Origin: Candidatus Peregrinibacteria bacterium Greene0416_19
Lineage (GTDB): Bacteria > Patescibacteriota > Gracilibacteria > Peribacterales > Peribacteraceae
NCBI GenBank assembly: GCA_007375735.1
Contig: VMEW01000009.1
Location: 48,569-112,568 of the forward strand
DNA: 64,000 bases
Reading direction: 5' to 3'
Shown here: positions 10,980-51,900 of the stretch, piece by piece
Layout of the letters: each line of letters opens with the position of its first letter
Numbering within the stretch: position 1 is the first letter of the stretch
Translations under genes and position numbers: made by a program
The notes under the pieces: generated by a model
What the model was told of the DNA's origin: nothing
Databases searched by the model: none
The model's input: the letters and a program-made list of their open reading frames with translations, nothing else

Positions 10980-10985
10980 CGCGTG

Positions 10986-11780: not shown

Positions 11781-12076
11781 ACTGATAGGGGAAAGGAGGG
11801 TGGAGCACTCGCATTCCCGGATACTCTTAAGGGACGCGCTGTGCTCCGTGCGCCAGCAATCGCGTCGGGACGAGTCCCTAGGGAATGCTGAACGGAGTCA
11901 GCCGCGCCCCTTACGGGGCACTCCTAGGGACGACCAAAGTCAGGACGTCAGGCCGATGCAATTACTGGCGCGTTGAAATTATGCCCCTGTTTTTCGGCAA
12001 AGGAAAGCGAGTTTGACGCACAAATAGAGGCCTCTTTACGACGAATAATTGCTGCTACACTGTCGTTGCGCCAGCA

Positions 12077-13024: not shown

Positions 13025-13028
13025 ATTT

Positions 13029-13361
13029 CTAATGCATAATTGCCCTCATCTCATCGAGGATTCGCAACTCACTTTGTTCCCACTGCTTACTCTGTTTATC
13101 AGATTTGTAACCCATCCAAATGGAAATAAATAATGCGACTGAAGAAACAGCAATGGAGGCGATGAGGTGCAAGTTGGCTGTTCTCCCCGCTAACTCATTT
13201 GTCGCTACATTGATCAGCGGCTGCACGCGATCAAGTTCGACTCTACCTGCTGGTCTAGATATCAATTCATAAGCTTCTTTTAATAGATTCCTCAGGTCTT
13301 TTTTTGCCCATTCCGATGGAAAGCCAGGATGGTCATGGAGGAGATCGTAAATATCTTTCAT
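13029..13361 (-). CDS. hypothetical membrane protein
   Basis: 110-aa ORF, one C-terminal TM helix. Confidence 0.6.
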   Translation of the reverse strand: MKDIYDLLHDHPGFPSEWAKKDLRNLLKEAYELISRPAGRVELDRVQPLINVATNELAGRTANLHLIASIAVSSVALFISIWMGYKSDKQSKQWEQSELRILDEMRAIMH

Positions 13362-13418
13362 GGCCTTATGCTAATTTATATACATGGAAATCCCTAAAAC
13401 AAATGAACAACCCTGTAT

Positions 13419-14072
13419 CTATACCTTAATCATGGTTACCCCTTTCCGTGGCTGATGACGTCTGTCGACCGCTACCAAATAACCGATGTCTTGCAGATGT
13501 TCGTACAAGCGATCGATGCGCCAAAGAAGGTCTTTCACATCGATGCTAGCTAGAGCTGCCATGTTGTAGCTCTTCCCTTTCCTTGTTTGAGGGTAGCGAA
13601 AGAGCTCATTCTGGGGATCATCAATTTCCTCCTGCAGAATCTTCCGCTGTGCGAAGTATGCAATGAGCTCTTGCAACTCGGGAATGACCTGCTGCTGCAG
13701 ACGATCAATCTCTTCTTGGGTCAGGATGTCTTGATCCTCGTTGATTTGAATGGGGATCCATTCTGTTTCGAGAATGACCCTCTGAATCTTCGTGAAGAGA
13801 TGCAAGATGTCGTGTGACGACCTATCGGATTGTCCAAGATCGGAGAGCGTAGATTTCAAGAACAATTCAATGCCATGATGGATGTCAAAAAGCGCGGACG
13901 GCAGCAAATCGAAGGATGTGTAGCGGATTGGCAGCCACCCATCAGGCACGCGGGGATTATCTGTGCTCCACAGATGCACAGGTTCCAGCAGTTGCTGGCA
14001 AATGAGCCGAGCGGTTTTGAAATATCCTTGGCCATGGAAGAGTAAGCCTTCTTTTTCAAGGTTGCGTTGCAC
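13419..14072 (-). CDS. HEPN-like domain protein
   Basis: HGIELFLKS...SHDILHLF...FRYP pattern. Confidence 0.65.
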   Translation of the reverse strand: MQRNLEKEGLLFHGQGYFKTARLICQQLLEPVHLWSTDNPRVPDGWLPIRYTSFDLLPSALFDIHHGIELFLKSTLSDLGQSDRSSHDILHLFTKIQRVILETEWIPIQINEDQDILTQEEIDRLQQQVIPELQELIAYFAQRKILQEEIDDPQNELFRYPQTRKGKSYNMAALASIDVKDLLWRIDRLYEHLQDIGYLVAVDRRHQPRKGVTMIKV

Positions 14073-34249: not shown

Positions 34250-34435
34250 GGTAGCGTCAACGGCACGACCGCGCCAAGGCGGCGTTCATCGCCATTCGAT
34301 CACGAGAACCCGCTATCTCCGCCGTGAAGCGATTGGCAATCTTGACCCGCATCCGCGTCACGGCGGAGATCACCGGTTCTATCCAGCGGGATGCCGCCAT
34401 GATCGCAGTGAGTTGGTCGTGCCGTTGACGCTACC
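34250..34435. repeat. 186-bp long hairpin element with 21-bp perfect terminal inverted repeats
   Basis: GGTAGCGTCAACGGCACGACC / GGTCGTGCCGTTGACGCTACC plus inner ATCTCCGCCGTGA/TCACGGCGGAGAT. Confidence 0.85.
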
Positions 34436-36932
34436 TAAGTGGCAGCAACCGGCGGAGCTCCCGCAGTTGACCCTCGGACAGAATGACTAGCAACTCTCCA
34501 TCTGACGCGGCTTTGATCGCACCGACGCTGCCGAACTTCTTCAGCAGCTTCACCTTCGTCTCCTCCCCGATCCCCGGAATCTCATCGAGCGCCGATTTCT
34601 TCATCTGCTTCATCCCCCGCTTCTCACGGTGGTGATTGGCGAAGCGGTGCGCCTCATCGCGCAGGCGCATGAGGAGGAACTTGGCCGGCGAGTCTGGGGG
34701 GAAAAGAAGGGGGGTGCTCCGATCGGGGACGAACACTTCCTCTTCCCTCTTCGCGAGTCCGATCACCGGAATCTGCACCCCGAATTTCTGCAGCACGGCC
34801 GTGACTGCGGAGAGCTGGCCCTTGCCACCGTCGATGACAAGCAGATCAGGACAACTGCTCAAGGATACATCGATTTTGTTCTGGCTCGCGTCGTAGACCA
34901 TGATCAAGCTCGGCTCCGCGTCGGGATGCTCGGCGTGGAATCGTTCCAGTTTCTCGCGGAGAGCGGGGGGCGGGGTGAGCACATGACGGAATCCGACGGC
35001 CGCATAGTAATCCTCAAGTGACGCTTTGGAGTGCAGATACATTTTGCCTCTCTTGAGACCGCGCAGAATCTTGCGCACCAGAAACTGCCCGAGTTTGTTC
35101 CCTCGCCAAGCGTCGTGCACCCACACGGAACGAATGGTCGGGATCTTCGGCGGATAGACGAAGAGACGTGCCATCCCGATGACCGCACCGCCATGCCTGG
35201 CAACGACATAATCGCGGTAATCGACCATGTCGCTCCCGATATCACCGGGATTGGCACGGCTGATCGTTTCGATCTGTTCCTGCTCCTTCTTCAGCGCCTT
35301 CCCGAACGTAACGCCTTTCCCCTTCCACTTCTCCTGTTCAGCAGGCAAATCCTCCACCAGCCGCCGGATGCGGCGCGTGAGGACTTCCTGCAGAGCTTTG
35401 TAGTCATCGACGTCGCCCTCCTTGAGCGAACGGATGGTGAACGAGCGGTACTGGTCGTTCGCGGCTCTGCCTGCGATCGCGACCGTCATGCTGCCGACCG
35501 TCTCGGTCCCGCCGAGGTGCGAGATGTCGTAGCACTCGATGCGGTGCGGCAGGACCGGCAGGTGAAGAATCTCCTGCAGCTGACGCTGCGCGTTTTCCGC
35601 GTTGCCTCGCGCCGCCTCCCACTTGAGCTCCCGCTGCCGCGCCTTCTCCTGCACGTTCTTCTCGGCGAGTTGCAGCAAGTGCGACTTGCGGCCGCGCTCG
35701 GGGAGGAGGATCTGGACTTTCCGACCTTTCAGACCAGTGAGCCATCCCTCAAGCGTCTTCGCATCCAGCAATTCCTCGGAAACGATGAGCGTACCAGGAA
35801 TGTCGATCCCGTCGCCGTAGTACTGCGGGAGGAACTGCGCGAGCACCCCGGCCTCGCTCTCCGCCTGGCCGCTGAGCGAGAAGCAGCTGTCCCCAATCAG
35901 CTTTCCGCCACGACGGTACATCACGCAGACATCGGCGCGGCCTGAGAGCAACGCGACCGCGATGACGTCGGAGTCCTCCCCCGTGGTATCGGTGATGATC
36001 TGCTGCCCGCTCTGCAGCCGCTCGATGGTGCCCAGGTAATCGCGGAGTTGCGCCGCCAGCTCGAACTTCTTCTCCAGCGCCGCCTGCCGCATCTTCACCT
36101 TCACCAGATCTTTCACGCTCTCGTAATCGCCCTTGAGGAACCGTATGACCCCGTCAATCGATTCGCGAAAATATTCCTCCGGCGTTTTCGTCCCGACGCA
36201 GGGAGCGGTGCAGGATCCGATGTGATGATCGAGGCAGGGGGTGGGGCGGTCTTTGTGAGTGCAGACGACGTCCATTTTGATAGACCAGCCCCCACCCCCC
36301 ATCCCCCCTCCCCCGTCGGGGGAGGGGGCCAGGGGGTGGGGGCTGGGGTTCTTAAGTGAAGGGGGGTGGGGGCTGGGGTTCTTAGGCTGAGAAACCGGCT
36401 CGATTTCCATCCTGCACATCCGAAACGGAAATATCTTCCGCAGCATCGTCAGCGTGTTCACAAGCTCGCTCCCACTCAGCATCGGCCCGAAGTACTTGGC
36501 GCCGTCATGCGGATCGAACCGGCGGACCGTCTCGACGCGCGGGAAGGGATCCTGCACCGTCACACGCGCGTAGACGTAGTTCTTGTCGTCCTTCATCAGG
36601 ACGTTGTATTTCGGCCTAAGCTCCTTGATCAGGTTGGTCTCGAGGATGAGCGCCTCGATTTCGTTCCCGACCACCGTCACCTCGAAGTCGGCGATCTGCC
36701 GGAGGAAGCTCTGCTTCCAAGGCCCGCTCGCATCCTTCATCTGAACGTAGCTGCGCAACCGATTCTTCAAGTTCTTCGCCTTGCCGACGTAGAGAACCGT
36801 GCCCTCGGCGTCCTTCCACTTGTAGATCCCCGGCCCAGCGGGCGCCGTGGCGACCCTCTTACGAAGTTCGTCGAGATGCGGGTTCAGGACCGCGACCTTC
36901 TTCTTCGGCGCTGTGCGTCCGCGGTTGGGCAC
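34431..36932 (-). CDS. uvrC: excinuclease ABC subunit C with inserted GNAT domain
   Basis: PGIY...LYVGKAKNLKNRLRSY, RIECYDISH, PDLLVIDGGKGQ, LRDEAHRFA, HhH; GTG start 6 nt after TATGAT. Confidence 0.95.
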   Translation of the reverse strand: MPNRGRTAPKKKVAVLNPHLDELRKRVATAPAGPGIYKWKDAEGTVLYVGKAKNLKNRLRSYVQMKDASGPWKQSFLRQIADFEVTVVGNEIEALILETNLIKELRPKYNVLMKDDKNYVYARVTVQDPFPRVETVRRFDPHDGAKYFGPMLSGSELVNTLTMLRKIFPFRMCRMEIEPVSQPKNPSPHPPSLKNPSPHPLAPSPDGGGGMGGGGWSIKMDVVCTHKDRPTPCLDHHIGSCTAPCVGTKTPEEYFRESIDGVIRFLKGDYESVKDLVKVKMRQAALEKKFELAAQLRDYLGTIERLQSGQQIITDTTGEDSDVIAVALLSGRADVCVMYRRGGKLIGDSCFSLSGQAESEAGVLAQFLPQYYGDGIDIPGTLIVSEELLDAKTLEGWLTGLKGRKVQILLPERGRKSHLLQLAEKNVQEKARQRELKWEAARGNAENAQRQLQEILHLPVLPHRIECYDISHLGGTETVGSMTVAIAGRAANDQYRSFTIRSLKEGDVDDYKALQEVLTRRIRRLVEDLPAEQEKWKGKGVTFGKALKKEQEQIETISRANPGDIGSDMVDYRDYVVARHGGAVIGMARLFVYPPKIPTIRSVWVHDAWRGNKLGQFLVRKILRGLKRGKMYLHSKASLEDYYAAVGFRHVLTPPPALREKLERFHAEHPDAEPSLIMVYDASQNKIDVSLSSCPDLLVIDGGKGQLSAVTAVLQKFGVQIPVIGLAKREEEVFVPDRSTPLLFPPDSPAKFLLMRLRDEAHRFANHHREKRGMKQMKKSALDEIPGIGEETKVKLLKKFGSVGAIKAASDGELLVILSEGQLRELRRLLPLR

Positions 36933-36994
36933 GGGGCTATCATACGCAATTCCACACATTGACGCTCCGGCCTCAGAAGAAAAGAATGGAAGGC

Positions 36995-37234
36995 ATGGAA
37001 GAAAAACGTGTCCCGGATGCGTATCTGAAGAGGCTTGTGCAAGGGAAAATCTCTTTTGATGAATCAAAAAACTTCACCATCCAGTACTACGACGACGAGG
37101 GCATGCAACAGCGCGTGCATGCCCTCATCGATGGCATGCGGGACTTCGACGAATGGAAGCACGCGCGCCTGATCTACGCGACAATGCGCACGATCTTCCT
37201 GCCCATCCACCGCCTGCTCAGGGAGATTGAATGA
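36995..37234 (+). CDS. small hypothetical protein
   Basis: 79-aa ORF divergent from uvrC. Confidence 0.55.
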   Translation: MEEKRVPDAYLKRLVQGKISFDESKNFTIQYYDDEGMQQRVHALIDGMRDFDEWKHARLIYATMRTIFLPIHRLLREIE

Positions 37235-40194: not shown

Positions 40195-41001
40195 ATGCCT
40201 CTCGTCTCCGCCATCATCCTCAACTACCGCACCGGTCGGCTGGCGGTGCGCTGCGCGGAGGCGCTGCTCAGGCAGACGATCGGCGGGCAGCTTGAGGTGA
40301 TCATCATCGACAACCACTCCGACGACGATTCGATCGGCTTCATCCGCAATCGCTTCCGTGGAAATCCTTCTGTGCGCATCGTGGAGACGCGCCGGAATAT
40401 CGGCTACGGCAGGGGCAATGCCGAGGGCATTCGGTTCGCGAGCGGGACGTACCTCCTCATCATCAACCCCGACAATGAGTTGGAGCCGGATGGACTGGAA
40501 CGTATGGTCGCCGCGATGGAGGCGGATCCGGAGATCGGGATCCTGGGTCCGCAGCTCCGGCACCAGGACGGCAGCATCCGCGACTCCACCCGCGCGTTCC
40601 CGACGATGACGGACATTTTCCTCAAGCGGACATTTCTCCGGCACCTCTTCCCCCACCGTGTGCACCAGTACCTCCACCATCTGGAGGATCCGAGGAAGGT
40701 GCGCGGAGTGGACTGGGTGGCGGGCGCGTGCCTGCTCATCCGACGGGACTTCTTCGGGGAACTCGGCGGATTCGACCCCCGATTCTTCCTGTTCTTCGAG
40801 GATACCGACCTCTGCCGCCGGTGCTGGCGGGCCGGCCGCAGGGTCGTCTACTTCCCACTTGCCAAAGCGACGGATCGTAAGCATCGGCTGAGCGAGGGGG
40901 GGCTGCTGACCTTCTTCACCAAAAAAACGGTCCGTATCCACCTCGTGAGCGCCCTCAAGTACTTCTGGAAATGGAAGCATGCGCCCCTGACACCGCATTG
41001 A
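40195..41001 (+). CDS. family 2 glycosyltransferase
   Basis: SAIILNY, IDNHSDD, NIGYGRGN, INPD, WVAGACLLIR, FFLFFEDTDLC. Confidence 0.92.
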   Translation: MPLVSAIILNYRTGRLAVRCAEALLRQTIGGQLEVIIIDNHSDDDSIGFIRNRFRGNPSVRIVETRRNIGYGRGNAEGIRFASGTYLLIINPDNELEPDGLERMVAAMEADPEIGILGPQLRHQDGSIRDSTRAFPTMTDIFLKRTFLRHLFPHRVHQYLHHLEDPRKVRGVDWVAGACLLIRRDFFGELGGFDPRFFLFFEDTDLCRRCWRAGRRVVYFPLAKATDRKHRLSEGGLLTFFTKKTVRIHLVSALKYFWKWKHAPLTPH

Positions 41002-41046
41002 CGCCGCAAACGGCATCCATTAGCCTAGTCCGGCCTTCCACTGCCC

Positions 41047-41775
41047 ATGGACATGCTTCCCCTCACCGTCACGACCCGCGACCCCAAGGCGAAGGGCAAC
41101 CAGCTCCGCAGCAGGGGACAGGTGCCGGCGGTGGTGTACGGATCGGACGTGAAGGATTTGCTGATCCAGTGTGACGAAAAGGAGCTCCATAAGACCTTCG
41201 TGAAGGCCGGGGAATCGACGCTGGTGGAGCTGGAAATGGCAGGGAAGAAAATCCCCGTCCTGTTCAAGCAGATCCAGTTCGACCCCATCTCCGATCGCGA
41301 GATTCATGCCGACTTCTACGCGGTGGACATGAAAAAAGAAATCGAGACAACGGTCCCCGTTCACTTGGATGGTGAATCACCCGCCGTGAAAGAGCAGGCC
41401 GGCATTCTCGTCATCGCACACGAAACGGTGACGGTGCGCTGTCTGCCCAAGGACCTGCCGCACAGCCTGACGGTCTCCATCGTGGGGCTCGCCAACTTCC
41501 ATGACGTGGTGACGGTGAAGGATCTGCAGGTGCCCAGGGGGGTCAAAGTGATGGATGCCGCAACAACGGTCATCGCCACGGTGCAGGAACCGCGCGCTGA
41601 GGAGGAGATCGCCCCGCCGCCGGCAGCGACCGTGGAAGGGGCCGTCCCGGCCGAAGGAGCCGTGCCGGCCGAAGGCGCCCCGGCAGTGGAGGGAGCGGCG
41701 ACCACAGCAAGCCCCGGAGCGGCGCCGGCCAAGGCGGAAGAGAAGGGAGGGAAAGGGAAGAAGGAGAAGAAATAG
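41047..41775 (+). CDS. rplY: 50S ribosomal protein L25/CTC
   Basis: LRSRGQVPAVVYG, QFDPI...HADFY, VRCLPKDLP. Confidence 0.93.
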   Translation: MDMLPLTVTTRDPKAKGNQLRSRGQVPAVVYGSDVKDLLIQCDEKELHKTFVKAGESTLVELEMAGKKIPVLFKQIQFDPISDREIHADFYAVDMKKEIETTVPVHLDGESPAVKEQAGILVIAHETVTVRCLPKDLPHSLTVSIVGLANFHDVVTVKDLQVPRGVKVMDAATTVIATVQEPRAEEEIAPPPAATVEGAVPAEGAVPAEGAPAVEGAATTASPGAAPAKAEEKGGKGKKEKK

Positions 41776-41889
41776 CATCACCATTTCCAGCAGCACCCAT
41801 CCTTGGGTGCGGTCCCAGAGCCATTGATGGCCAACCGCGGGCAGGCCTGCCTGCCGGTAGGCAGGGATGCCCGCTCCCGTGGGTGAGAT

Positions 41890-44271
41890 TTATTGCTTTT
41901 CCCGCAACCACTCCGGCAGCAGCAACGCCGGCTGCACCCCTGGCACCTGCTCCGCAAGATCCAGATCATCGATCGCGACTTTGCCGACGTAGAGCCGGCG
42001 CAGATCTCCGCCCTCCGACACGAATCGCTCGATCCGACGCTGCCCGCGAAAGTAGACGATGCCTTTGGTGAAACAGCCCGGTTCCGAGGGATCGTGCAGA
42101 CCGCGCTTGAGCTCAATGGCCTTCGTGAGAGCTTTGGGCGCGGCGTACCCCAGCTGCTCTTCCAGGTGACGACGGGTATCGACGAAGGAGTGCGTGAGGG
42201 CGTAGGCAACCGCCAGAAAGCTGCGGGCCGGGCCGTAGCGCTTCTCGTGAAACGGCGACAGCACGCGGTTCTGATGGAAGACGGCCAGACCCTCCTGGGT
42301 GTCCAAGTAATCAGCGAATCCCCGCCGGAAGATTTCGAACGGCTGATGATCGCCGTTCACCACGGTCAGAATGTGCGTCTCGACCTCGTGCACGATCAGC
42401 GATGCGATGTGCTCCCGTGAGAACAGTGCCCCTTCCCGCAGATAGAGCTCCTTCCAGCCGACGCTGCAGTCGGCCACCACACTCCCCCGGACCAGCACCT
42501 GCCAGTCATGGAGACCGTAGCGCAGGAACGCTTCCTCGAAGAGTGGTGCCGCCTCCTGGGCGTTCAGGAGGTCTGTCGCGGGCGGCAGCAGGTCGCATGC
42601 CGCGCGCGCGGACAGGAAAGCCCTGGCTTCCGAGAGCAGCGGCTCCTGGGGGAGGCCGAAGAGCTGGGCCGAGGAACGCGTGACCGCCTCCGCGTTGCCG
42701 CGACTCTGTAGCACCGCCATCCGTTCCAGGAGTTCCCGGCGCTTCTTGGCCAGAATGATGCCGAGCGGCGAGTCGTCGGTATCAACACTGATCATGCGTT
42801 GCGTCATATCGTCCAAATCGAGCGCCACATCGGGATACGAGAAGAGCGGGCTGTACGAGCGGTCGGTTTCCAGGCGCGCGCGCTCCTCGGCGAGGTTCAT
42901 GGGCTTGAGGTACTTGAGGAGCAACAGATCCTGGTCCATATCCGCCAGAATCCGGTCGAACGCCCGCAGATCCGTGCGCATCTTCTGACGAATGGGGGCG
43001 CCCGATGCCTCCTTGGCTGGGTCGATGAGAAAGCCCTGCAAATCCCGCCGACCGATGACCGCCCGCACGGACATCAAGGGGACGGTCCCCGGTTGCACCA
43101 GCGTCTGGAGCCGGCGACCCCCCAGTGTGAACTTCACATGGAAGAGTCCCTCGTCCTGACGCTCCGCCCCGCCGGCCCGCTCCAGTTCCCGCAGCAGATC
43201 CGGCGTGAAGATGCTGCGGTCGGTGAGCATCGGTGACACGAGCGCCGACACCTCCATGGAAGCCCCCTCCGCGCTCACCGTGATCGTTTCGCGCAGGCCG
43301 AGAATCGGACGGTCCACGGTCTCGCGACGCTCCGGGCGTTCCGGCCGGTGACCGAAGAGATCACGCGCCAAGCGCACGCCCTTCTCCGGGGTCGTGACCT
43401 TCACCCCTTCCACCCGTTCCAGACGGGTACGCAGCCCCGCGAGATTCGCCACCTGCACCATCAGCCCTGCCCGGGCATTCACCTCCAGCAAGACCGGCCC
43501 CTGATCGCGGTCGAGCGTGAGGTCGACGGCCAGGTACCCGATGTTCGTGATGTACTGGATACGGGCTGCGTGCAGCAGCAACTCGTCCCAGTAGGGAATC
43601 TGGATGCCGGACGGGGACACGCCGTGCGGGAGGATGCGGATGAGGTGGTGGTATTGCGTGGCGTACGTCGTGACGCCTTTGGTGATATCGATGCCGATGC
43701 CGATGCCCCCCAGGTGCACGTTCGCCTTGCCGCCGCTCTCGGCGGTCGGCACCCGCAGCATCGCCATCACCGGCACCAGATTGAAGACGACAATCCTCAC
43801 GTCGGGCAGCCCCGCCGGTCTGAACGGCGCGAACGCGGGGTGAGGAGTGAGGATCTTCTCGAAGAATGCCGTGTCATTTTTGCCGTTGATGGAGAACCGC
43901 CCGTCCAAGATGTCCTCGATATGTTCACGCAGGCGTCTCTCGGTGATCGGCCTCTTCCCCTCCTCCAGGAACTCCCCTTTCCGCCGACCCTTGAGGATGA
44001 GGATGCCCTCGCCGCCATAGCCGTAGTTGGGCTTGAGGACGCACTCGTCGGGCAGCGTGGAGAAGTCGAACTCCCGCAGTTGACGCCGATCCTCGATGCG
44101 CGCGTAGATCTTGGCGACGGGGATGCGTCGCGCCGACAGGAAGGCCTTCGTCTTCAGTTTGTCATCGGCGAACGCCACCGCCTTCTTGGGATTGTAGGGC
44201 CGCATGTAGAGGAGATTCCGGGCGTTGAGGCCCAGGACGCCGTGCCGGCGGGTGAGGAATGGGAAGATCAT
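41890..44271 (-). CDS. ATP-grasp amino-acid ligase fused to DUF1704/MATCAP-like metallopeptidase
   Basis: LGLNARN...ADDKLKTK, KPNYGYGGEG, AMLRVPT..SGGKANVHLGG, LEVNARAGL; C-terminal HEVETH, TQEGLAV, KRGL.D...FTK.IVYFRG, LYVGKV. Confidence 0.88.
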   Translation of the reverse strand: MIFPFLTRRHGVLGLNARNLLYMRPYNPKKAVAFADDKLKTKAFLSARRIPVAKIYARIEDRRQLREFDFSTLPDECVLKPNYGYGGEGILILKGRRKGEFLEEGKRPITERRLREHIEDILDGRFSINGKNDTAFFEKILTPHPAFAPFRPAGLPDVRIVVFNLVPVMAMLRVPTAESGGKANVHLGGIGIGIDITKGVTTYATQYHHLIRILPHGVSPSGIQIPYWDELLLHAARIQYITNIGYLAVDLTLDRDQGPVLLEVNARAGLMVQVANLAGLRTRLERVEGVKVTTPEKGVRLARDLFGHRPERPERRETVDRPILGLRETITVSAEGASMEVSALVSPMLTDRSIFTPDLLRELERAGGAERQDEGLFHVKFTLGGRRLQTLVQPGTVPLMSVRAVIGRRDLQGFLIDPAKEASGAPIRQKMRTDLRAFDRILADMDQDLLLLKYLKPMNLAEERARLETDRSYSPLFSYPDVALDLDDMTQRMISVDTDDSPLGIILAKKRRELLERMAVLQSRGNAEAVTRSSAQLFGLPQEPLLSEARAFLSARAACDLLPPATDLLNAQEAAPLFEEAFLRYGLHDWQVLVRGSVVADCSVGWKELYLREGALFSREHIASLIVHEVETHILTVVNGDHQPFEIFRRGFADYLDTQEGLAVFHQNRVLSPFHEKRYGPARSFLAVAYALTHSFVDTRRHLEEQLGYAAPKALTKAIELKRGLHDPSEPGCFTKGIVYFRGQRRIERFVSEGGDLRRLYVGKVAIDDLDLAEQVPGVQPALLLPEWLREKQ

Positions 44272-44323
44272 GAGAAGGGCAAGTGTCAGGGCATGGGGCA
44301 AGGCAATTATCCTTGCCCTAGCC

Positions 44324-45859
44324 CTACTCCTCGGAACCAAGATGCCGGAACACCTCACGAAAACGGAAATATTCCACCAGGCGCAACCCCGTGAATCTCC
44401 CCAGGATGATGTTGATGACGATGGTGATGAGGATCAGTTCCGGGTAGGCGAGGAGCATCGACTGGAAGGACGGCCACTGGACGACGAAGACGCACAGAAG
44501 CGCCGCACCAACGGTCTGGGCGATTCCCAGCACCGCCGAGAGCCACCCCTGCTCCGTCTTCGCCGTCAGGAAGCTCTCCGAGAGCGTGGACATGATGAGC
44601 AGGATGAACACGGTATCGCGCGCCAAGAGGAGGCCCAAGGATGATCCGAGCGCCAGGAGGATGAGGAGGATGATACTGCTCACGATCAGGATGATCGCCA
44701 CCTTGGGCACGTAGAGCAGGTGCCACCTCCGCATGGCCGCGCGGGTGGCGTAGCCGGTGCTGACGATGAGGATGAGGAAGATGAGGCCCACCCACCAGCC
44801 GAGCGCCAGGAAACTCAGCGCGACGATGGACGGGGCAAAGAGGCCGAACGTGGTGATGCCGATCACCTGCTTGAGGAACGAGAGAATAGTGGCGATGACA
44901 GGCAGCATGAGGAGGAGGATGACCGTCTGGCTGGAGACACCGTGGGTCAGCATGTACGTGACGAGCGCAGACAGGACGTTCCACGGGCGGACGCGCACGC
45001 GGGCATCCGTGAGCACCGCCACCTCCAGATTCTGCTGCGCCGCCTTTCCCAGGAATGCATCGATCGTCGGTGTCGTGAGGAGCGGCGTCATGGCCGCCGG
45101 ATGGGCCAGGAGTATCTGACGCGGGCGGAGCACCGCTTTCATACCGGCGGCAGTGCGCGCCAGGGTGGAGATGCCGCCGTCCGTCACCACCATCACGGTG
45201 CGACTGTTCAGGTTGAGGAGGGAGCGCGCAGGCCCCTGCGCTGCCTCCAGAAGACTCTGGAGTGCCAGGACACCGTCCGTCCACAGCACGATCGCGTCGG
45301 CGCCCAGGAACGCGGCTGCATGTTCGGCGAAGACGGCGGCGAGCGCTTCCTCTCCGCCCCGCACGGCGACTGCAACGCGGGGCCGCAGCACGCGGAGGTA
45401 CACCCCCGCCCCGCTCGCGGTACGCTCATGGAGAGCGATCTTCTCCCCCGGCACGCCCGGATCGGCCACGAGAACGACCTTGCGGCGGTACACGATCACC
45501 GTGTGGACGGCCTCCGAATGCAGAAGCTTGCGATTCTGCATGACACGCACGACCAGCCGGAACGTCAGCGTTCCATCCCGCTCGGGCGTGTAGATGGCAT
45601 CCACCGATCGGCTGAACGGCTCGGCCTGCTTGTCCAGGTACCACTCGTACCGTACGTCTCCGGCCCCGACGCGGCTGGCGGACGCATCCAGAATAATGGT
45701 CCGTCCGGCCATGGTGTCCTCCGGCCCCTGGATGAGCGCGAGCGGCTGCGCGCCGGCATCCTCGACCGGCGGGTCGAGGATGGGATCCTGCGCCAGGACA
45801 GGGACTGCCGCGCATACAAGAAGCGCGCTTGCGACTGCCCGGAGGAGAGTGATTCGCAT
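44324..45859 (-). CDS. PKD-like ectodomain + 7TM domain protein (7TM of the inactive-transglutaminase-fused family)
   Basis: Signal peptide, ILDASAS...YEWY; C-terminal LPVIAT...KQVIGITTFGLFAP, LLYVPK, LGRFTGLRLVEYFRF. Confidence 0.85.
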   Translation of the reverse strand: MRITLLRAVASALLVCAAVPVLAQDPILDPPVEDAGAQPLALIQGPEDTMAGRTIILDASASRVGAGDVRYEWYLDKQAEPFSRSVDAIYTPERDGTLTFRLVVRVMQNRKLLHSEAVHTVIVYRRKVVLVADPGVPGEKIALHERTASGAGVYLRVLRPRVAVAVRGGEEALAAVFAEHAAAFLGADAIVLWTDGVLALQSLLEAAQGPARSLLNLNSRTVMVVTDGGISTLARTAAGMKAVLRPRQILLAHPAAMTPLLTTPTIDAFLGKAAQQNLEVAVLTDARVRVRPWNVLSALVTYMLTHGVSSQTVILLLMLPVIATILSFLKQVIGITTFGLFAPSIVALSFLALGWWVGLIFLILIVSTGYATRAAMRRWHLLYVPKVAIILIVSSIILLILLALGSSLGLLLARDTVFILLIMSTLSESFLTAKTEQGWLSAVLGIAQTVGAALLCVFVVQWPSFQSMLLAYPELILITIVINIILGRFTGLRLVEYFRFREVFRHLGSEE

Positions 45860-45928
45860 GGTGGGTAGTATAGAGGACGGTAGACGCAAAAGGATCCTTC
45901 GGGTGGTTCTATCCGTCCTCGTTCCATG

Positions 45929-46098
45929 CCCCCTCCCCCGACCCCTCCCCCTCGCTGCGCTCGGGAGAGGGGAGAGCCATGCAGTGCACGGTAGTGTCAT
46001 GCTTTCATCGTGAGAGATCTGGAGAGGTAAGATGACTTCTCCCTGAATGGAGCTCCCCTCCCCGACGATAGGAGGGGGAGGGGTCGGGGGTGGGGGCA
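45929..46098. repeat. REP-like CCCTC(T/C)CCC...GGGAGAGGG elements
   Basis: Two G/C-rich palindromes of the same family as 29230-29346. Confidence 0.7.
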
Positions 46099-46109
46099 CA
46101 TTCACCCAT

Positions 46110-46460
46110 TCACCTCCCCACCCTTCTCCTCTTCCTATGCGCCCGGTCCCTCCCCGTGTGCATCTCCTTGTAACGCTTCAGCTGCGGTTCCAGCTTCTCG
46201 ATGCAACGGTCGACGCCGTCGATGGCACTCATGCGGCGGGACTCGGCCCGCAACTGACGGCGCGGCAGGATGACAGTGATCATCACCTTCACCATGTCAC
46301 GCTGCTTCTTGGTGGCCCGTCGCTCGGCCTCGATGCGGATGGCGGAATCCTCGTTCTGCAAGCGGTTGCAGTACGTGGCCAATTTCCCCAGTTTGCGGGC
46401 TACGATGATGAGTTCCTCGGCGGTGTAGGACAGTCCTTTTTCGAAGTGCTGGATGTTCAT
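46110..46460 (-). CDS. hpf: ribosome hibernation factor (HPF/RaiA family)
   Basis: KLGKL...LRAES...AIDGVDRCIEKLEPQLKRYKE. Confidence 0.78.
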   Translation of the reverse strand: MNIQHFEKGLSYTAEELIIVARKLGKLATYCNRLQNEDSAIRIEAERRATKKQRDMVKVMITVILPRRQLRAESRRMSAIDGVDRCIEKLEPQLKRYKEMHTGRDRAHRKRRRVGR

Positions 46461-46551
46461 AAACGCAGGATAGAGCAGGTTCCGCGGGGAGCGGAAGAGA
46501 TTGTGAGAAATGGCAAAAAGTGCTATAATTTTAGGATTTACTGCCAATTCA

Positions 46552-46809
46552 ATGAACCAAAGCGAACTCCGTTCCCTGATGGACATGATCCGGCTCTCCA
46601 CGCTGCTGAACGACGCGGAGCGGCGCGAATGGCTGCAGACCCTGGAGTTGTATTCTGATGCCGAATTGGATCAGTTGTATCAGATTTTTGCCGACTCCCA
46701 GGCGGTGGAACCGGCCAGCGAACTGGGGCACTGGCGGCAGGCGCTCCGCGAAACGGAAAGCATCGCGCGTGAATTCACTGCCCCTCTCTCCGCAATCACC
46801 CATGTCTGA
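46552..46809 (+). CDS. small hypothetical protein
   Basis: TG-C-TATAAT upstream; 8-nt overlap with the next gene. Confidence 0.65.
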   Translation: MNQSELRSLMDMIRLSTLLNDAERREWLQTLELYSDAELDQLYQIFADSQAVEPASELGHWRQALRETESIAREFTAPLSAITHV

Positions 46810-47806
46810 ACCAGAGAAACCACAGGCAGCACCGGCGGAGGATCCTCAGCTGGTCGAGGCGAAGAAGCAGCTCCAGAGCACGATTGACACGAACCACGGT
46901 GATGTTGAGAAGGTAGCGCAGGATATCGACACCAGGCTGGGCGGTCTTGAAACGAAGGTGAAGAACATCAAAGCCAACCTTCCGGCCCAGATCGAGACGG
47001 CGAAGAAAGAGGTGCTCGCGCACGCCGAGGCACTCCGGCAGTTATCCGCACAGGCGCAGGGACCCCTGAAGCAGAAACTGGATCTCGCTATCGACAGAAT
47101 CAGCCGCATCTATGCGGACACTGCAAATGAAGTGACGGACGGCAAGGCCGAATTCTACCGTCGTCTGGCCGAATTCAAAGCCAGGAATGCACCACCGGCC
47201 GCTCCCGGCGCACAGGGCCAGACCCCGGCTGCACAGCAGATGGAGAGCGGCGAGTACGCGCCCGGCACCGATCACCTGACTGAGCAGCAGGCCAAGGAGT
47301 CGCTAGATAATCGCGACTTCCTGACCAAGACGGCCGACTTTCTGAAGATGCCGCTGCTGGCCCAGTTTGCGGGACAGATCTCCTCCTTCTTCCAGGCCCA
47401 TCCCACGCTCGACAAGGCCAAGTCCTGGCTGATGAGCTTCCTCCCGATCCCCAACCTACAGCAGACAGGCGAGGGCATCAACAGCGTCTACCAAGCGATG
47501 TTCTTCGAGACCGACGTGCAGGCGCAGCTGTCCGCGCTCTCGCCGGCGAGCATGAAGTTCCTGGAGCCGCAGCTCTGGAAGAGGAACGGCACCGGTGGCA
47601 ACCCCACTGACCGCTTCCTGCGCGAATGGCAGGAAGTGGCCAAGACCCGCGCCATCACGCCGGTGAAGTACGCTGCGGAGAAGCTGAAACAGGCCCAGAC
47701 ACAGAACGCGGATGCGCTGGCCACCTACGACGTCAAGAATCCCCTCCCCTACACCATCGAGCTCCTCATAGGCCAAAAGACCATTCCAAAGCGGGCGGCC
47801 CCGTAA
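46802..47806 (+). CDS. coiled-coil hypothetical protein
   Basis: 334-aa ORF in operon. Confidence 0.7.
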   Translation: MSEPEKPQAAPAEDPQLVEAKKQLQSTIDTNHGDVEKVAQDIDTRLGGLETKVKNIKANLPAQIETAKKEVLAHAEALRQLSAQAQGPLKQKLDLAIDRISRIYADTANEVTDGKAEFYRRLAEFKARNAPPAAPGAQGQTPAAQQMESGEYAPGTDHLTEQQAKESLDNRDFLTKTADFLKMPLLAQFAGQISSFFQAHPTLDKAKSWLMSFLPIPNLQQTGEGINSVYQAMFFETDVQAQLSALSPASMKFLEPQLWKRNGTGGNPTDRFLREWQEVAKTRAITPVKYAAEKLKQAQTQNADALATYDVKNPLPYTIELLIGQKTIPKRAAP

Positions 47807-47834
47807 TTCGCAATTCTTCATTCTCAATTCCATT

Positions 47835-48893
47835 ATGGACCCCTTCGACCTCCTCCTCCAGAGCTCCAATCAACCGGTGCTGGACCAGCCACGCATCAAG
47901 GACGCAGCCGGCGAATTGACGCGCGGCTTCGACCAGGCGGGCAAGTCCCGCCAGCAGTGGCGGGAGCTGCGCGCGAGCGTGGAGAAGCTCCGGCAGCGCA
48001 ACGATCTTGCAGCTGACACACGGACGGCGATCGACGAATTGCAGAAGGAACTGGAGGGGCGTCACATTCTGCCGCCGCTGTTCACGGGCGGCATGCTGCA
48101 GGATGCGGCGGACAAGGCTCCCGAGCAGCTGAAGAACGCCGCCAAGGGCGCGGCAGATCTTGTGGAGCAAGGCGCCCAGGGCGCGGTGGAGGGCATGAAC
48201 TTCCTGGGCGTGGAAGGCGCAAAGAAGCTGGAGACGATCGCACCGCAGGCGAAAGACGCGGTGAAGCAGTGGCGGGAGTTCACGGAGAAGAACCCGAAGA
48301 CGGGGTTACTCATCGGCGGTGGCGTACTCGCTGCCGCGGCGGCCGGCGTCTACCTGGCTGTGAAAACCGTTTTCAAGGCGGTGAAATGGGTGGGCCGGAC
48401 AATAGGACAAGGTTTGTCCTGGCTGTGGAACAACAAGTGGAAAGTACTCACGCTCGGGGGAATCGGGTACGGCATGTACCGGCTGAGTCAGAACCGATCG
48501 AAAGCACCAGCGGGCGCGCCCGCGACACCTTCGCATGCGCCTGGCGAAAATCTGGTCGGGAAGACCCAGCAGATCGAGATCGCAGGCAGGAAGCACACGG
48601 TCAGCATCGCACCCGACGCGACGGTGACGGTCGACGGACGGCATTGGAAGCTGCAGGGCCGCGGCGCCGCCAGCCTCGCGACGTTCTCGGTCCGAACAGT
48701 GGAGCGCGACGCGCACGACAATGCGGTGCTGGAAGTGACCGGCAAGCTGCTGCTGTTCCAGAAGACCGCCCGCCACCGGATCCCCGCCGCCGAGCTCCGC
48801 TCGCTCATCGCCGGCCTCGCCGCTGGCACCCCGCCCCCGCCGCTGAAGGTGGAGAACGGGAGGTACGAGATTGAGCTGGTGCGGAAGACGTAA
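47835..48893 (+). CDS. hypothetical protein with central hydrophobic hairpin
   Basis: Helical N-terminus, GLLIGGGVLAAAAAGVYLAV and KVLTLGGIGYGMY segments, beta-rich C-terminus. Confidence 0.7.
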   Translation: MDPFDLLLQSSNQPVLDQPRIKDAAGELTRGFDQAGKSRQQWRELRASVEKLRQRNDLAADTRTAIDELQKELEGRHILPPLFTGGMLQDAADKAPEQLKNAAKGAADLVEQGAQGAVEGMNFLGVEGAKKLETIAPQAKDAVKQWREFTEKNPKTGLLIGGGVLAAAAAGVYLAVKTVFKAVKWVGRTIGQGLSWLWNNKWKVLTLGGIGYGMYRLSQNRSKAPAGAPATPSHAPGENLVGKTQQIEIAGRKHTVSIAPDATVTVDGRHWKLQGRGAASLATFSVRTVERDAHDNAVLEVTGKLLLFQKTARHRIPAAELRSLIAGLAAGTPPPPLKVENGRYEIELVRKT

Positions 48894-48919
48894 TCATCAC
48901 AACAAACACAAACTCCCAC

Positions 48920-51900
48920 ATGGAAAAACAAACGACACCAGAGGCGCCGAAGGATGGATTTTTCGGCCTCAACCGCCTCGTACGTCGAGAGGGGGGCGAG
49001 GGCCAGCTGCCAACACTGGATGCGAAGGAAGTGGAAGCTGCAGCAAATGGTGGTTGGGATGCGCTCGAGAAGTTCATCGGAATGAATCCGGATGGGACTG
49101 CGCGCAGCGAAACGGAGAAGGCGCAGCGGCTCCGTCAGGCGCTGAAAACCCTGCAGGAAAAGTTCCCCGAGCTCTACAAGCAAAAGCGCGAGGAAATCCT
49201 GAGCCATAGCCACGAATTACTGAAGAAGAGCCGAGCAGATACAGCAAAGGAATTACAGGCGGCAGTGGGTGACAAGCAGAAGGAGTTGCAAAAAACGATC
49301 GAAGAAGTGGCCGACTCCCACCGGGATGTGCTTGCGAGGCAGCGCGAGGCGGCTGAGGGCATTGGCAAGGTGACGGTGGAGTTCCGGCAGGCATACGACA
49401 GGGTACTGAGCGCAGACAAAAATGAAGCGTGGAAAATAGGTGCGGCCGCCATCGGCGGTGCCGTCATAGCGAGCGCAGTCTGGAACTATCTCCGTGAGTC
49501 GTGGACCGGCGAGAAGCTCACACTCTGGCAGAAGATCAAGAAGAGCTTTGGCGCTATCGCGTTCGGTGCGGCTGCGGGAGTGGTGGGGTACAACATGGCG
49601 TCGCGCATCGCGCCGAAGGGAGTGCGGGGACTGTTCGATGGCGCTGTTGACAAGTTCATGGCAGACCACCCGACCTTGCGCGATAGCATCAAGGCGGCGG
49701 AACAAGTCCCCGAAGGTATGACCACAGGTGCGCTCAAGTTCGTCGGCGATGTCGCCAACATCCCCGCGCAACTCATGAACGGGGGGCTGGTGTCGGTGGA
49801 CATGGATAAGAACCCCCTCCTGACGATTCCCGGAGAGACGATGACGCTCCCGTGGGACGCGCTTCTGAAGTTTCTGAAGCTCAAAGAGGTGCAGAAGGGC
49901 GAGTCCGTCTTGACCGTGTGGTTTGGTGCCGGCATGTACGCTGTGATGAGCAGGGCGACTTACCAGCTGATCAGACACATGAATCCATCGGCGTTGGCTG
50001 AATTTCTTTCCGTTCGCGGGATCGTGATGAATGCTGCCCGCGCAGGGCTTGCCCCGGTCGTGGTTCCCGTAGAGCACATGTACAAGGCAGTGAAAATTGC
50101 CAACACGCTCCGGATGAATAATCCGCTAGAGATCATGCGAGCGGAGTCCACCACGTGGGGCCCGTCCATTATGCGCGACCGGCAGCTGCGCTGGATCAAA
50201 AAGGGGACCGCTGGGAAACTGGAAGGTGCATTCGCGCGCTTCGCCGAGATCGACCAGTCCACCGCCCTCATGCGGGGCAACCGATCGGATACCCTGACCT
50301 ACGGCTACACCCAGGAAGAGATCACCGCGCGGGAAGCGCTCAGCGACACATATAAAGACCGGTTCGTCGAGCGCCTGAAACGGATGAATCCCGGCGAGCT
50401 CCAGGACGCGCCCGAATGGCTGGAGGAGCTGCACAAGGACGTCCTCAACAATCCCGACGCCGAGGTGAAGAGGATCCGCGATAGGTACTTCAACAAGGCA
50501 CGGGACAGGTTCCAAGCATTGCAGGAAGCGAAGACCGAGCTGCAACCTGGCAAGGTCAGGCGGGCGGCAGAATGGGGCAAGCGGAGTATCGGTCTCGGCG
50601 AGCGCGAGAGCGTCAAGCTGTCGCGCGCATCGGAAACTTTGCGCCGTGCGGACGTGAGCGCGAACGACATTCGTCGCACCCTAGGTGACGCCCAAGCCGA
50701 TCGCGTCGCCGCCCTCCGGAACGCCGAACCCCTCACGCAGGAAATTGCTGACAAGCAGGCTGCCATCCTCGGAAAGAAAATGCAGATCGACCTGAAGCAG
50801 ACCCGTCTGGCCGCCACAACCGACCCTGCTGTCAAGATGGCACTGCAGGATGAGATCGTTAAATTGAGAAAATATCTCGCCACACTGAATGCACAGCGGA
50901 CGGCCGCCGGCGAGAAGCTGGTGAAGCACCTGGCCACGCAGGACGAAGCGGTGCGCGGGGCGGTGGCCCGCCGAATGACCTCGCAGGCATTGGAAAATCC
51001 GGTCATCGAGGCATCTGTGCGGGCGGAACTGATCGATGAGCACGCCAGGCGTTTCGCGCCAACGACGAAAGGACGCGCAGCAGCTGCGCTGGAGGCCGAG
51101 CAGGAGCTCCAGGCTCTTAAAAAAGGGGGCATTCCTGCGAAGTGGGAAACAGCCTGGAAGAATGCACATAACAGCACTCCTCATAAAGGGAGCGGCACTC
51201 TGACGCTGAACGAGATTCATGCAAAAGATGTCATCCTTCAGGATGCCAAGATACCCAAAGCCCTACGCGATGGTTACCTCCAAGGTATCTGTGGCCAGGA
51301 AGGCGCCTCCCGCACACCGGAAAATCTGGCCGCAGCGGAAAGGGGGCGCGCCCCTGCACCTGCGGAGGAAGCGAAGGGGCCGAGGCAGACTGAAACGACC
51401 AAGACCAAACCGAGTGAACCTGCCGCCAGGAATACAGAAATAGAAACGAAGAAACCCGGATCGACAGTGCCAGAGAGGACGAAACCACCTGTTCTCAGCG
51501 AAGGAAAAACAACGAAATCACAAGCGCCCATGGAAGGAACAAGCGGAACCACTGAGGCAAAGCTAGGTACCGGATCAAAAGCCGGCCACGAAATAGGCGT
51601 ACTTGGAAAGACAATGATCTACGGCGGAACACTGGCAGCCGGTCTGAATCTGAAGCACGAACTGCTCTCGACCGCCGATGAGATGCTGCGGGTGGAGAAG
51701 GTGCGTCAAGACATGGAACGACAGGTCAAGGCGGCCGGCTTCGTGGAGGAACCGCGCGGCAGTGGCAGGTTCAAGCACCCGCTGGGTCCGGAATTCTCCA
51801 TGACGCTCATGAATCCGATTGAAGAACAGAAAGCCACCCAGTACATAAAGACCGGCGTCGCTGTGGCGGAAGTTGGGGTGGGACTCAGCGCCATCGTGAT

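Follow-up and report, generated by a model that had tools for sequence, protein, structure and literature searches.

Candidatus Peregrinibacteria bacterium Greene0416_19, an uncultured bacterium of groundwater, encodes an ATP-grasp ligase that is fused to a MATCAP-like metallocarboxypeptidase, and the gene for this fusion protein lies beside a gene for a membrane protein with seven transmembrane (7TM) helices. Both genes are in a 64,000-nucleotide stretch of contig VMEW01000009.1, which we call the window; positions are those of the window unless we say otherwise. We are highly confident of the architecture and the linkage of this pair of genes. Our overall account of them, which we put forward tentatively and would not call probable, is that they form a two-gene module of the Candidate Phyla Radiation (CPR, or Patescibacteria) and that this module is a variant of the Rlo and Rim systems, which combine ATP-grasp ligases with peptidases. 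We lean toward the narrower claim that the opposing ligase and carboxypeptidase act on one acidic C-terminal substrate. Because the two activities stay fused or neighboring across many CPR lineages, a cycle of addition and removal on a single substrate is a reasonable reading of the sequences.

Domains and motifs of the fusion protein

The fusion gene is at 41890..44271 on the minus strand and encodes 793 amino acids plus a stop codon: an ATP-grasp ligase, a dead retropepsin-like domain, and a MATCAP-like metallocarboxypeptidase. The minus-strand open reading frame (ORF) at 41890-44358 includes the ATG at 44271 that gives this product, and this start is supported because homologs of 788-839 amino acids align from residues 1-10. 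We saw neither a signal peptide nor a transmembrane helix, so we take the protein to be cytoplasmic. An initial annotation, which was made from the DNA sequence alone, had proposed the composition of ATP-grasp, degenerate retropepsin, and DUF1704, and this composition is borne out by Pfam, NCBIfam, sequence alignment, and a structural model. The features that it described, including the length of 793 amino acids, were all found where it had placed them.

The ligase domain (residues 10-306, at 43354..44244 on the minus strand) appears to be of the RloC or TIGR02291 type. In Pfam, ATPgrasp_ST (PF14397) matches residues 18-288 with E = 5.9e-60 and 203.3 bits, as compared to a cut-off of 31.4. In NCBIfam, TIGR02291 ("alpha-L-glutamate ligase-like protein") matches residues 8-309 with E = 6.3e-74 and spans model positions 8-316 of 317, and its 248.8 bits are under the cut-off of 314.2. 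Given its name and its Pseudomonadota clusters in the Atlas, TIGR02291 appears to correspond to RloC. The Pfam model for RimK (PF08443) gives 16.9 bits, which is under its cut-off of 21. The tubulin-tyrosine ligase family (PF03133) is absent from the protein's Pfam matches at E ≤ 1; among 45 diverse fusions, PF03133 matches 9 weakly (best E = 1.2e-7).

The C-terminal domain (residues 432-793, at 41893..42978 on the minus strand) belongs to the MATCAP, DUF1704, or QEGLA type. PF08014, which is the MATCAP family and was formerly named DUF1704, matches residues 470-775 (E = 3.4e-41; 141.9 bits; cut-off 27) and also matches all 45 of the diverse fusions. When a profile of the whole-fusion alignment was compared to the PDB, it matched human MATCAP with E = 7e-33. 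Together with the fold match that we describe below, the Pfam score settles that the domain is DUF1704, as the initial annotation had it. TIGR02421 ("QEGLA motif protein") from NCBIfam matches residues 447-791 with E = 1.5e-46 and 159.3 bits; this is under the equivalog cut-off of 338.65, and therefore we consider the protein to be a relative of the QEGLA family and not an equivalog.

The initial annotation had placed both activities in one chain, and the motifs of the ligase and of the MATCAP domain are intact; the retropepsin part alone is catalytically dead. In the ligase, K80 (within KPN), E263, and N265 are each conserved in at least 90% of the 45 diverse fusions. In a set of 120 close homologs that includes the window protein, ExNA and KRG are found in every sequence and KP[NTV] is found in 118. 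By analogy with other ATP-grasp enzymes, we take K80 to be the ATP-binding lysine and E263-x-N265 to be Mg-binding. In the MATCAP domain, the HExxxH zinc and catalytic motif is HEVETH (residues 628-633, at 42373..42390 on the minus strand) and the second motif is QEGLA (residues 659-663, at 42283..42297 on the minus strand), in which E660 is the second invariant glutamate. By sequence, the counterparts of HEVETH and TQEGLA in human MATCAP are HEIGTH and TEEGLA. None of the 45 diverse fusions departs from H628, E629, H633, E660, or A663, and the close homologs retain HExxxH in 120 of 120 cases and [QE]EG[LI]A in 111 of 120. According to excerpts of a study of the human enzymes, the E281A mutant of TMCP1 (MATCAP) is inactive, as are the E329A and E364A mutants of TMCP2, and enzymes of the MATCAP family strip C-terminal tyrosine, and also glutamate, from acidic tails (PMC10499314). 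We predict that the window's domain has a C-terminal carboxypeptidase activity of the MATCAP type.

An AlphaFold2 model of the fusion protein, built from the 45-sequence alignment, has a mean pLDDT (predicted local distance difference test) of 91.0 and a pTM (predicted template modeling score) of 0.55. In it, two low-confidence linkers separate the ATP-grasp domain (residues 10-306), a domain rich in beta strands (323-420), and a helical domain (432-793). Residues 452-793 of the model match human MATCAP (7z5g_A) with Z = 26.1 and a root-mean-square deviation (rmsd) of 2.6 over 286 aligned residues at 23% identity, and the next-best fold match to this domain is a DUF885 protein (3iuk, Z = 16.5). 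The ligase domain is most similar to ArgX (3vpb, Z = 18.4), LysX (5k2m, Z = 16.7), and RimK (4iwx, Z = 16.5). Judging from the titles of these entries, all three presumably ligate onto a C-terminal glutamate of a protein. This ranking is only suggestive, as VanA follows closely at Z = 16.1. The whole-model fold searches were filled by matches to ATP-grasp, MATCAP, and PKD domains, so that the middle domain, and the alpha/beta and 7TM parts of the membrane protein, were barely tested.

VanA and DdlA (Z = 14.5) put the D-Ala-D-Ala ligase family near the top of the fold matches, and we considered whether the ligase and the carboxypeptidase might edit the stem peptides of peptidoglycan, or a similar precursor, with the 7TM protein as the link to the outside. 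In Pseudomonas aeruginosa, a triple mutant in the rloA protease genes is reported to be defective in cell shape, in sensitivity to cell-wall antibiotics, and in hypo-osmotic survival (PMC12239564, cited here and below from excerpts), and at one locus with separate genes (L040, below) the MATCAP gene is beside mreB. Nevertheless, we think that a role in editing the cell wall is improbable. The adjacency to mreB occurs at that locus only, the sequence families that the ligase matches are RimK-related glutamate ligases and not Ddl or Mur, and the enzymes of the MATCAP family that have been studied act on C-termini of proteins that are made of L-amino acids (PMC10499314). We still prefer an acidic C-terminal tail as the substrate.

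A dead, retropepsin-like domain in the middle

The beta-rich middle domain of the model (residues 323-420, at 43012..43305 on the minus strand) seems to descend from retropepsins of the RimB or RloA type. The initial annotation had pointed to a stretch, ILGLRETITV...VIGRRDLQGFLIDP, that resembles this family and does not contain DTGA, and the stretch is indeed in the window protein. On their own, residues 318-432 match no Pfam family at E ≤ 10, and so the case for a retropepsin origin rests on alignment with relatives. Among the 45 diverse fusions, the aligned region matches PF05618 in 3 (best E = 3e-9), Asp_protease_2 in 4, and gag-asp_proteas in 3. The match of one relative, P0144, to PF05618 covers residues 368-432 and reaches 37.3 bits, where the cut-off is 27. 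The active-site motif DTGA or DSGA is intact in P0144, P0159, and P0160, and the window residues that align with it are VSPMLT. In the variants listed among the 120 close homologs, S, A, N, G, Q, or T takes the place of the catalytic aspartate, and just 4 of the 120 have D[TS]G at any point of the middle region. The profile of the whole-fusion alignment did not match any retropepsin chain in the PDB at E ≤ 1, and the whole-model fold search barely probed this part of the protein. On the evidence of the alignments, we view the middle domain as a diverged descendant of the retropepsins that is not a scoring member of PF05618.

Although this domain is dead as a protease, it has been kept. Across the close homologs, the middle domain is on average 53% identical to that of the window protein. 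The corresponding values are 27% and 14% for the linkers, 77% for the ligase, and 57% for the MATCAP domain. Furthermore, 32 of its 98 columns are at least 80% conserved, and these include R378, K380, K387, R403, R408, R409, and K420. A channel for polyglutamate in the RloA protease of P. aeruginosa is positively charged (PMC12239564). We suspect that the dead, conserved, and basic domain has been retained because it binds an acidic tail or mediates dimerization.

The membrane protein

The gene for the membrane protein (44324..45859 on the minus strand) is 52 bases upstream of the fusion gene, on the same strand, and encodes 511 amino acids plus a stop codon. The protein has a signal peptide, a PKD domain, an alpha/beta domain, seven transmembrane helices, and a predicted cytoplasmic tail that ends in -Glu-Glu. 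The initial annotation's upstream and co-oriented gene for a PKD and 7TM protein is thereby confirmed, both by a match to PF14402 and by the PKD fold in a structural model.

That model has a mean pLDDT of 84.5 and a pTM of 0.74, and it shows a signal helix at residues 2-17, a beta-sandwich at 40-125, an alpha/beta domain at 126-285, and seven long helices at 292-510. We assign the PKD-fold beta-sandwich to residues 36-125 (45485..45754 on the minus strand) from its structural matches, which are to the PKD domains of ColH (4u7k; Z = 12.0, rmsd 2.2, 85 aligned residues) and of ColG (4aqo; Foldseek E = 2.5e-5). Pfam recognizes a PKD domain in 3 of the 120 close homologs, and in a more distant homolog (at locus L039) PKD_4 matches with E = 1.1e-21. 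From the secondary structure of the model, residues 126-288 (44996..45484 on the minus strand) would be a five-stranded, flavodoxin-like or Rossmann-like, alpha/beta domain. It has only generic fold matches (Z = 8.9-9.4) and no Pfam family, and it occupies the position of the inactive transglutaminase in RloB. Both of these domains are predicted to be extracytoplasmic. Besides the PKD domain, Foldseek found just partial matches of high rmsd to the model of the membrane protein.

The remainder of the protein is a 7TM module of the RloB type (residues 292-510, at 44330..44986 on the minus strand). 7TM_transglut (PF14402) matches residues 307-503 with E = 5.7e-27 and 95.2 bits, as compared to a cut-off of 25. 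The NCBIfam model for RloB (NF052267) matches residues 309-504 only, with E = 4.3e-14 and 52.1 bits, and the cut-off for that family is 900. Since the protein has a signal peptide and seven helices, the model puts its C-terminal tail in the cytoplasm, on the same side as the enzyme. The codons for the final Glu-Glu, which we consider to be a candidate acceptor tail, are at 44327..44332 on the minus strand.

Distribution of the fusion and its linkage to the 7TM gene

The window's genome of 1.40 Mb (37 contigs; 97.9% complete) has one match each to MATCAP and to 7TM_transglut, and close homologs come from sources that are named Candidatus Peribacteria or Peregrinibacteria. Within the window's order, the fusion protein matches 84 of 121 sampled genomes (47 of 62 genera), and nearly all of these matches run from residues 1-10 to residue 790 in a single frame. 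In a sample of the phylum, 129 of 401 genomes have a match at E ≤ 1e-5, either fused or split, and full fusions are present both in the class to which the window belongs and in several families outside that class. In the split form, which occurs elsewhere, the ATP-grasp and middle domains form a protein of about 430-510 amino acids, and a MATCAP gene of about 380 amino acids is adjacent or about 5 kb away. An exhaustive search of representative proteins found 3342 matches at E ≤ 0.001, of which 548 were at E ≤ 1e-30, and full-length fusions, many of 780-820 amino acids, reach down to 27-30% identity. In the Atlas, the commonest phyla among the fused clusters are Candidatus Altimarinota and Candidatus Absconditibacteriota. 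Some distant fusions have tryptophan at positions where glycine is expected, which would fit lineages that read TGA as glycine and whose genes were translated under another code.

The initial annotation had suggested that the distribution of the fusion should be checked, and the fusion turns out to be real and conserved. We rejected an assembly artifact because the fusion is a single frame without stops in the majority of the 84 genomes that match within the order and because there are many distant representatives. Separately, four genomes of the order have a second, stand-alone MATCAP-like frame of about 350-376 amino acids that is 26-29% identical to the fused domain (given as genome, contig, and positions: G006:C26:21241-22197; G026:C9:239794-240456; G076:C43:62465-63406; and G054:C11:195850-196431).

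To describe the linkage of the genes, we chose 20 genomes from among the matches in the order and phylum samples and took about 8 kb of sequence on either side of the ligase gene. Eighteen of these encode full fusions, from several families, and two have the split form. At 19 of the 20 loci, the next gene upstream, on the same strand, is the 7TM gene, and it frequently overlaps or abuts the ligase gene. In the twentieth genome (G388), the gene for a 515-amino-acid counterpart with the same architecture is on a different contig. The two split loci have additional genes. At L039, overlapping genes encode the PKD and 7TM protein, the ATP-grasp and middle domains, and MATCAP, and these are followed by a 612-amino-acid protein with a domain that is similar to N-formylglutamate amidohydrolase (FGase; 10512-12350 of the locus) and by a further ATP-grasp protein (12347-13828), whose genes overlap as well. 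L040 encodes a 222-amino-acid protein with only the 7TM module, an ATP-grasp protein with a retropepsin domain, three further ATP-grasp proteins, and, convergently and beside mreB, MATCAP.

The Glu-Glu tail as a candidate substrate

The membrane protein of the window ends in ...FRHLGSEE. Among 120 close homologs of this protein (including itself), 117 end in Glu-Glu and 119 end in Glu. As a comparison, in a crude set of 1111 ORFs from the window's genome, only 10 end in Glu-Glu and 69 end in Glu. Outside of the window's family, 8 of 15 partner proteins end in Glu-Glu, with differing residues ahead of it (AEE and IEE twice each, and HEE, QEE, REE, and EEEE once each). Within the window's class this is a strong pattern, but it is not universal.

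We also predicted the complex of the whole fusion protein with residues 310-511 of the membrane protein. The score was 0.39, while the best of three controls scored 0.00. Of 157 solved complexes, 116 attained the mark that applies to such scores, as did 2 of 215 mismatched pairs; only 18 of the 157 solved complexes, and both of the mismatches that passed, attained it with scores of at most 0.60. At least 79% of the contacts are common to the runs, and the partner has a pLDDT of 71 or higher; the prediction gave no interface. We regard this prediction as weak support for contact between the two proteins. The -Glu-Glu end of the 7TM protein is our leading candidate for the target, and we hold it with a good deal of doubt.

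If we put these pieces together, a mechanism would run as follows. The membrane protein would display its PKD and alpha/beta domains outside the cell, cross the membrane seven times, and leave a short tail that ends in -Glu-Glu in the cytoplasm. The ATP-grasp part of its partner would extend a C-terminal carboxylate, preferably that of this same tail, with alpha-linked amino acids, most likely glutamate, and the zinc carboxypeptidase of the MATCAP type would take C-terminal residues off again. Because both activities would reside in a single protein that is held at the membrane, the balance between them would set the length of the target's tail. One could go further and imagine a tail code, in which the enzyme reversibly lengthens and shortens its partner's glutamate tail and the length of the tail switches the partner's activity according to what the outside domains encounter. 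We consider this extension rather unlikely. If it were true, then the combination of an ATP-grasp ligase for tails and a MATCAP trimmer would predate the tyrosination and glutamylation cycle of eukaryotic tubulin, it would have served first in membrane signaling in ultra-small bacteria, and the kind of substrate that has long been sought for the Rlo systems would have a name.

Several observations weigh against our account. First, 7 of the 15 partners from outside the window's family lack a glutamate at the end (KTRK, DKSA twice, KHRA, RKSH, NLD, and NVSK), so the tail cannot be a universal substrate, and three of these partners (at L032-L034) adjoin full fusions of one family. Second, because all of the last 25 residues are conserved in the close homologs, the Glu-Glu end may reflect a general constraint. 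Third, the specificity of the ligase for glutamate is suggested by its likeness to RimK-type enzymes, and its scores are under the cut-offs of both TIGR02291 and PF08443. Fourth, the pTM of 0.55 leaves the mutual placement of the three domains of the fusion protein unfixed, and the complex score of 0.39 is in a range that is more often wrong than right unless the contact was likely beforehand. Finally, the peptidase RloA of P. aeruginosa is located in the periplasm, which suggests that the product is exported (PMC12239564), and the operons at L039 and L040, from other CPR lineages, add further ATP-grasp ligases, and at L039 an FGase-like hydrolase, to the same core; these multi-ligase operons are better explained by the building of a defined peptide, free or exported, than by the simple extension of a tail.

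The initial annotation had proposed that the cycle is controlled by a receptor; the 7TM protein could equally be a substrate, an anchor, or an exporter. Our main alternative is that the ligase makes free poly-alpha-glutamate or a short acidic peptide, that the 7TM protein exports or presents it, and that MATCAP trims it, recycles it, or makes primers, with the cell envelope as the target. This would be the simplest transfer of the genetics of RloABC to the window's module. In P. aeruginosa, mutations in rloB and rloC compensate for losing the secreted RloA proteases; RloA cleaves stretches of at least 8 glutamates; RimK also makes free poly-alpha-glutamate; and free poly-alpha-glutamate is among the possibilities that the authors of that study discuss (PMC12239564). 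The expanded operons share the 7TM and ligase core, and together with the partners that do not end in glutamate they are easier to understand if the product is free. The conserved PKD and alpha/beta domains on the outside suggest a function on the surface of the cell. On the other hand, both of the peptidase-type modules appear to be cytoplasmic and are fused to the ligase, so breakdown would precede export. No secreted retropepsin was found in the window's genome (PF05618 has no matches at E ≤ 1), no transporter fold was recognized for the 7TM module, though the fold search barely probed it, and export leaves the conservation of the Glu-Glu tail unexplained. We think that a free, exported peptide is a serious alternative and that it is unlikely to be right. 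We continue to prefer a tail that is both extended and trimmed in the cytoplasm.

Genomic neighborhood and a possible link to translation

The initial annotation had noted that rplY and hpf flank the pair, which they do, and had taken them as a hint of a translation-related substrate. rplY (ribosomal protein L25/TL5; 41047-41775, plus strand) is merely a convergent neighbor. hpf encodes a short ribosome hibernation factor (46110-46460 on the minus strand; PF02482, E = 2e-7); it is upstream of the pair and co-oriented with it, and it probably does not belong to the system. A plus-strand ORF at 46047-46658 is a shadow of hpf. Past rplY are genes for a GT2 glycosyltransferase and for an H+-pyrophosphatase, and uvrC. 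The arrangement of rplY, GT2, pyrophosphatase, uvrC, and hpf next to the pair was seen at only 4 of the 20 loci, and all four are from the window's family.

The corresponding hypothesis would be that a ribosomal protein or HPF receives a tail from the enzyme, much as S6 does from RimK. Its appeal is that hpf is directly upstream of the pair and rplY is downstream, and that RimK with RimB is the best-known precedent for such a system (PMC12239564). Several lines of evidence disfavor a target in translation: the conserved gene order stops at the window's family; S6 (...SDDSLDL), L25 (...KGKKEKK), and HPF (...RRRVGR) of the window's genome do not end in glutamate; and PF08443 (RimK) has no match in this genome at E ≤ 0.01. 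Besides, a repeated palindromic element sits between hpf and the 7TM gene, and the invariably linked partner of the enzyme is the 7TM protein. We consider a target in translation to be very improbable, and the hint from the neighbors is not supported.

The S6 frame of the window's genome (L043 759-1472, on contig C16) is 237 amino acids from its first start and has a Lys/Glu-rich extension after the 90-residue domain. The palindromic element (45927-46098) has arms of 44 nucleotides that are 80% complementary and 84 nucleotides apart, and the RNA of the whole 250-nucleotide spacer that separates hpf from the 7TM gene has a folding energy of -143.9 kcal/mol. Elsewhere in the genome there are copies of the element or fragments of its arms (84% identity over 176 nucleotides on C23, and pieces on C16, C36, C11, C28, and C25), so that it looks like a miniature inverted-repeat element or a REP-like (repetitive extragenic palindromic) element. 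A search of 41000-47000 against Rfam gave just two chance-level matches to miRNAs, far under the gathering scores, and did not place the palindrome in a family. A scan of 41600-46800 for promoters and terminators found that such sites are no commoner than in shuffled sequences. 

Elsewhere in the window, the UvrC homolog (34431-37067, minus strand) has matches to GNAT acetyltransferases at residues 619-696 (E = 1e-7 to 8e-5), between two regions that resemble RNase H or endonucleases, which is an unusual insertion for UvrC. The uvrC gene as such, leaving aside the insertion, is kept in relatives of the window's family. On the other side, at 46658-54763 on the plus strand, three large ORFs (382, 352, and 1947 amino acids) do not match any Pfam family at E ≤ 0.001. 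The DNA of the window was found in three groundwater metagenome runs from one study; one of these runs may be its source, and no RNA run was listed.

Comparison with known systems

The initial annotation had compared the pair to RimK/RimB and to the tubulin enzymes TTL and MATCAP. Looking further, the closest system that has been studied appears to be RloABC of P. aeruginosa (Lormand et al. 2025, mBio, PMC12239564). In the excerpts of that paper, RloB is described as a 7TM protein whose transglutaminase domain is inactive and RloC as a cytoplasmic ATP-grasp enzyme. Both systems have a 7TM protein of PF14402, a cytoplasmic, RimK-related ATP-grasp enzyme that resembles the TIGR02291 type, and a module of apparent retropepsin ancestry, and in both the genes are together. 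However, the retropepsin of the window's module is internal to the cytoplasmic ligase and is catalytically dead, while RloA is a separate and secreted protein. The window's module has a fused MATCAP domain, and the excerpts do not name such a component of rloABC (PMC12239564). Where RloB has its inactive transglutaminase, the outside part of the window's 7TM protein consists of PKD and alpha/beta domains, and no transglutaminase family matches it in Pfam. Furthermore, the host is a CPR bacterium with a 1.4-Mb genome, whereas 96% of the matches to RloB are reported to be from Proteobacteria (PMC12239564). Given that the window's module lacks a transglutaminase, a secreted retropepsin, and an active retropepsin site, and has gained MATCAP, we describe it as a new variant and not as a member of RloABC. 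It is pared down to two genes, with all of the enzymatic parts in one cytoplasmic chain, and it has been kept in many genomes of about 1 Mb.

S6 (RpsF), which is the acceptor of RimK, ends in Glu-Glu. The window's module and the RimK/RimB/RpsF system share the pairing of an ATP-grasp ligase with a module of the retropepsin type, and RimK (4iwx) is among the top fold matches of the window's ligase. The differences are that PF08443 scores under its cut-off, that S6 from the window's genome does not end in glutamate, and that the window's module has a 7TM partner and MATCAP. RimK adds glutamate to the C-terminus of RpsF; more generally, RimK-type enzymes add alpha-linked glutamate to C-terminal carboxylates and the retropepsins RimB and RloA cut polyglutamate (PMC12239564). 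In Pseudomonas, the Rlo and Rim systems affect osmotic tolerance, biofilm formation, cell shape, and sensitivity to antibiotics (PMC12239564).

The bacterial QEGLA family (TIGR02421) has the same domain as the C-terminal part of the window's protein, which differs in that it is fused to a ligase and scores under the equivalog cut-off. We did not find a biochemical study of this family in the literature. Glutathione synthetases are ATP-grasp enzymes. In excerpts of a study of Photobacterium damselae, a QEGLA gene (RS17025) was induced 27.5-fold at low salinity and a gene with the adjacent locus tag (RS17020), annotated as the glutathione synthase GshB, was induced 38-fold (PMC10308900). This hints that the pairing of MATCAP-like and ATP-grasp proteins, and a link to osmotic state, may extend beyond the CPR. 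Within the literature that we searched, which excludes most subscription papers, no paper joins DUF1704 or MATCAP to ATP-grasp ligases or joins Rlo to the CPR.

Finally, the cycle that modifies the tails of tubulin (TTL or TTLL with TMCP1 or TMCP2) also sets an ATP-grasp ligase against an HExxxH carboxypeptidase of the MATCAP family on an acidic C-terminal tail, although the two activities of the window's protein are predicted. In contrast to the tubulin enzymes, the window's ligase is similar to RimK and RloC and not to TTL, both activities would reside in one chain, and the context is a membrane partner and not tubulin. MATCAP has hitherto been studied as a eukaryotic enzyme that acts on tubulin, and the fusions give it a bacterial context, in which it is habitually coupled to an ATP-grasp ligase. 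The -Glu-Glu tail of the 7TM partner would be a concrete and cheap substrate for tests of the enzyme.

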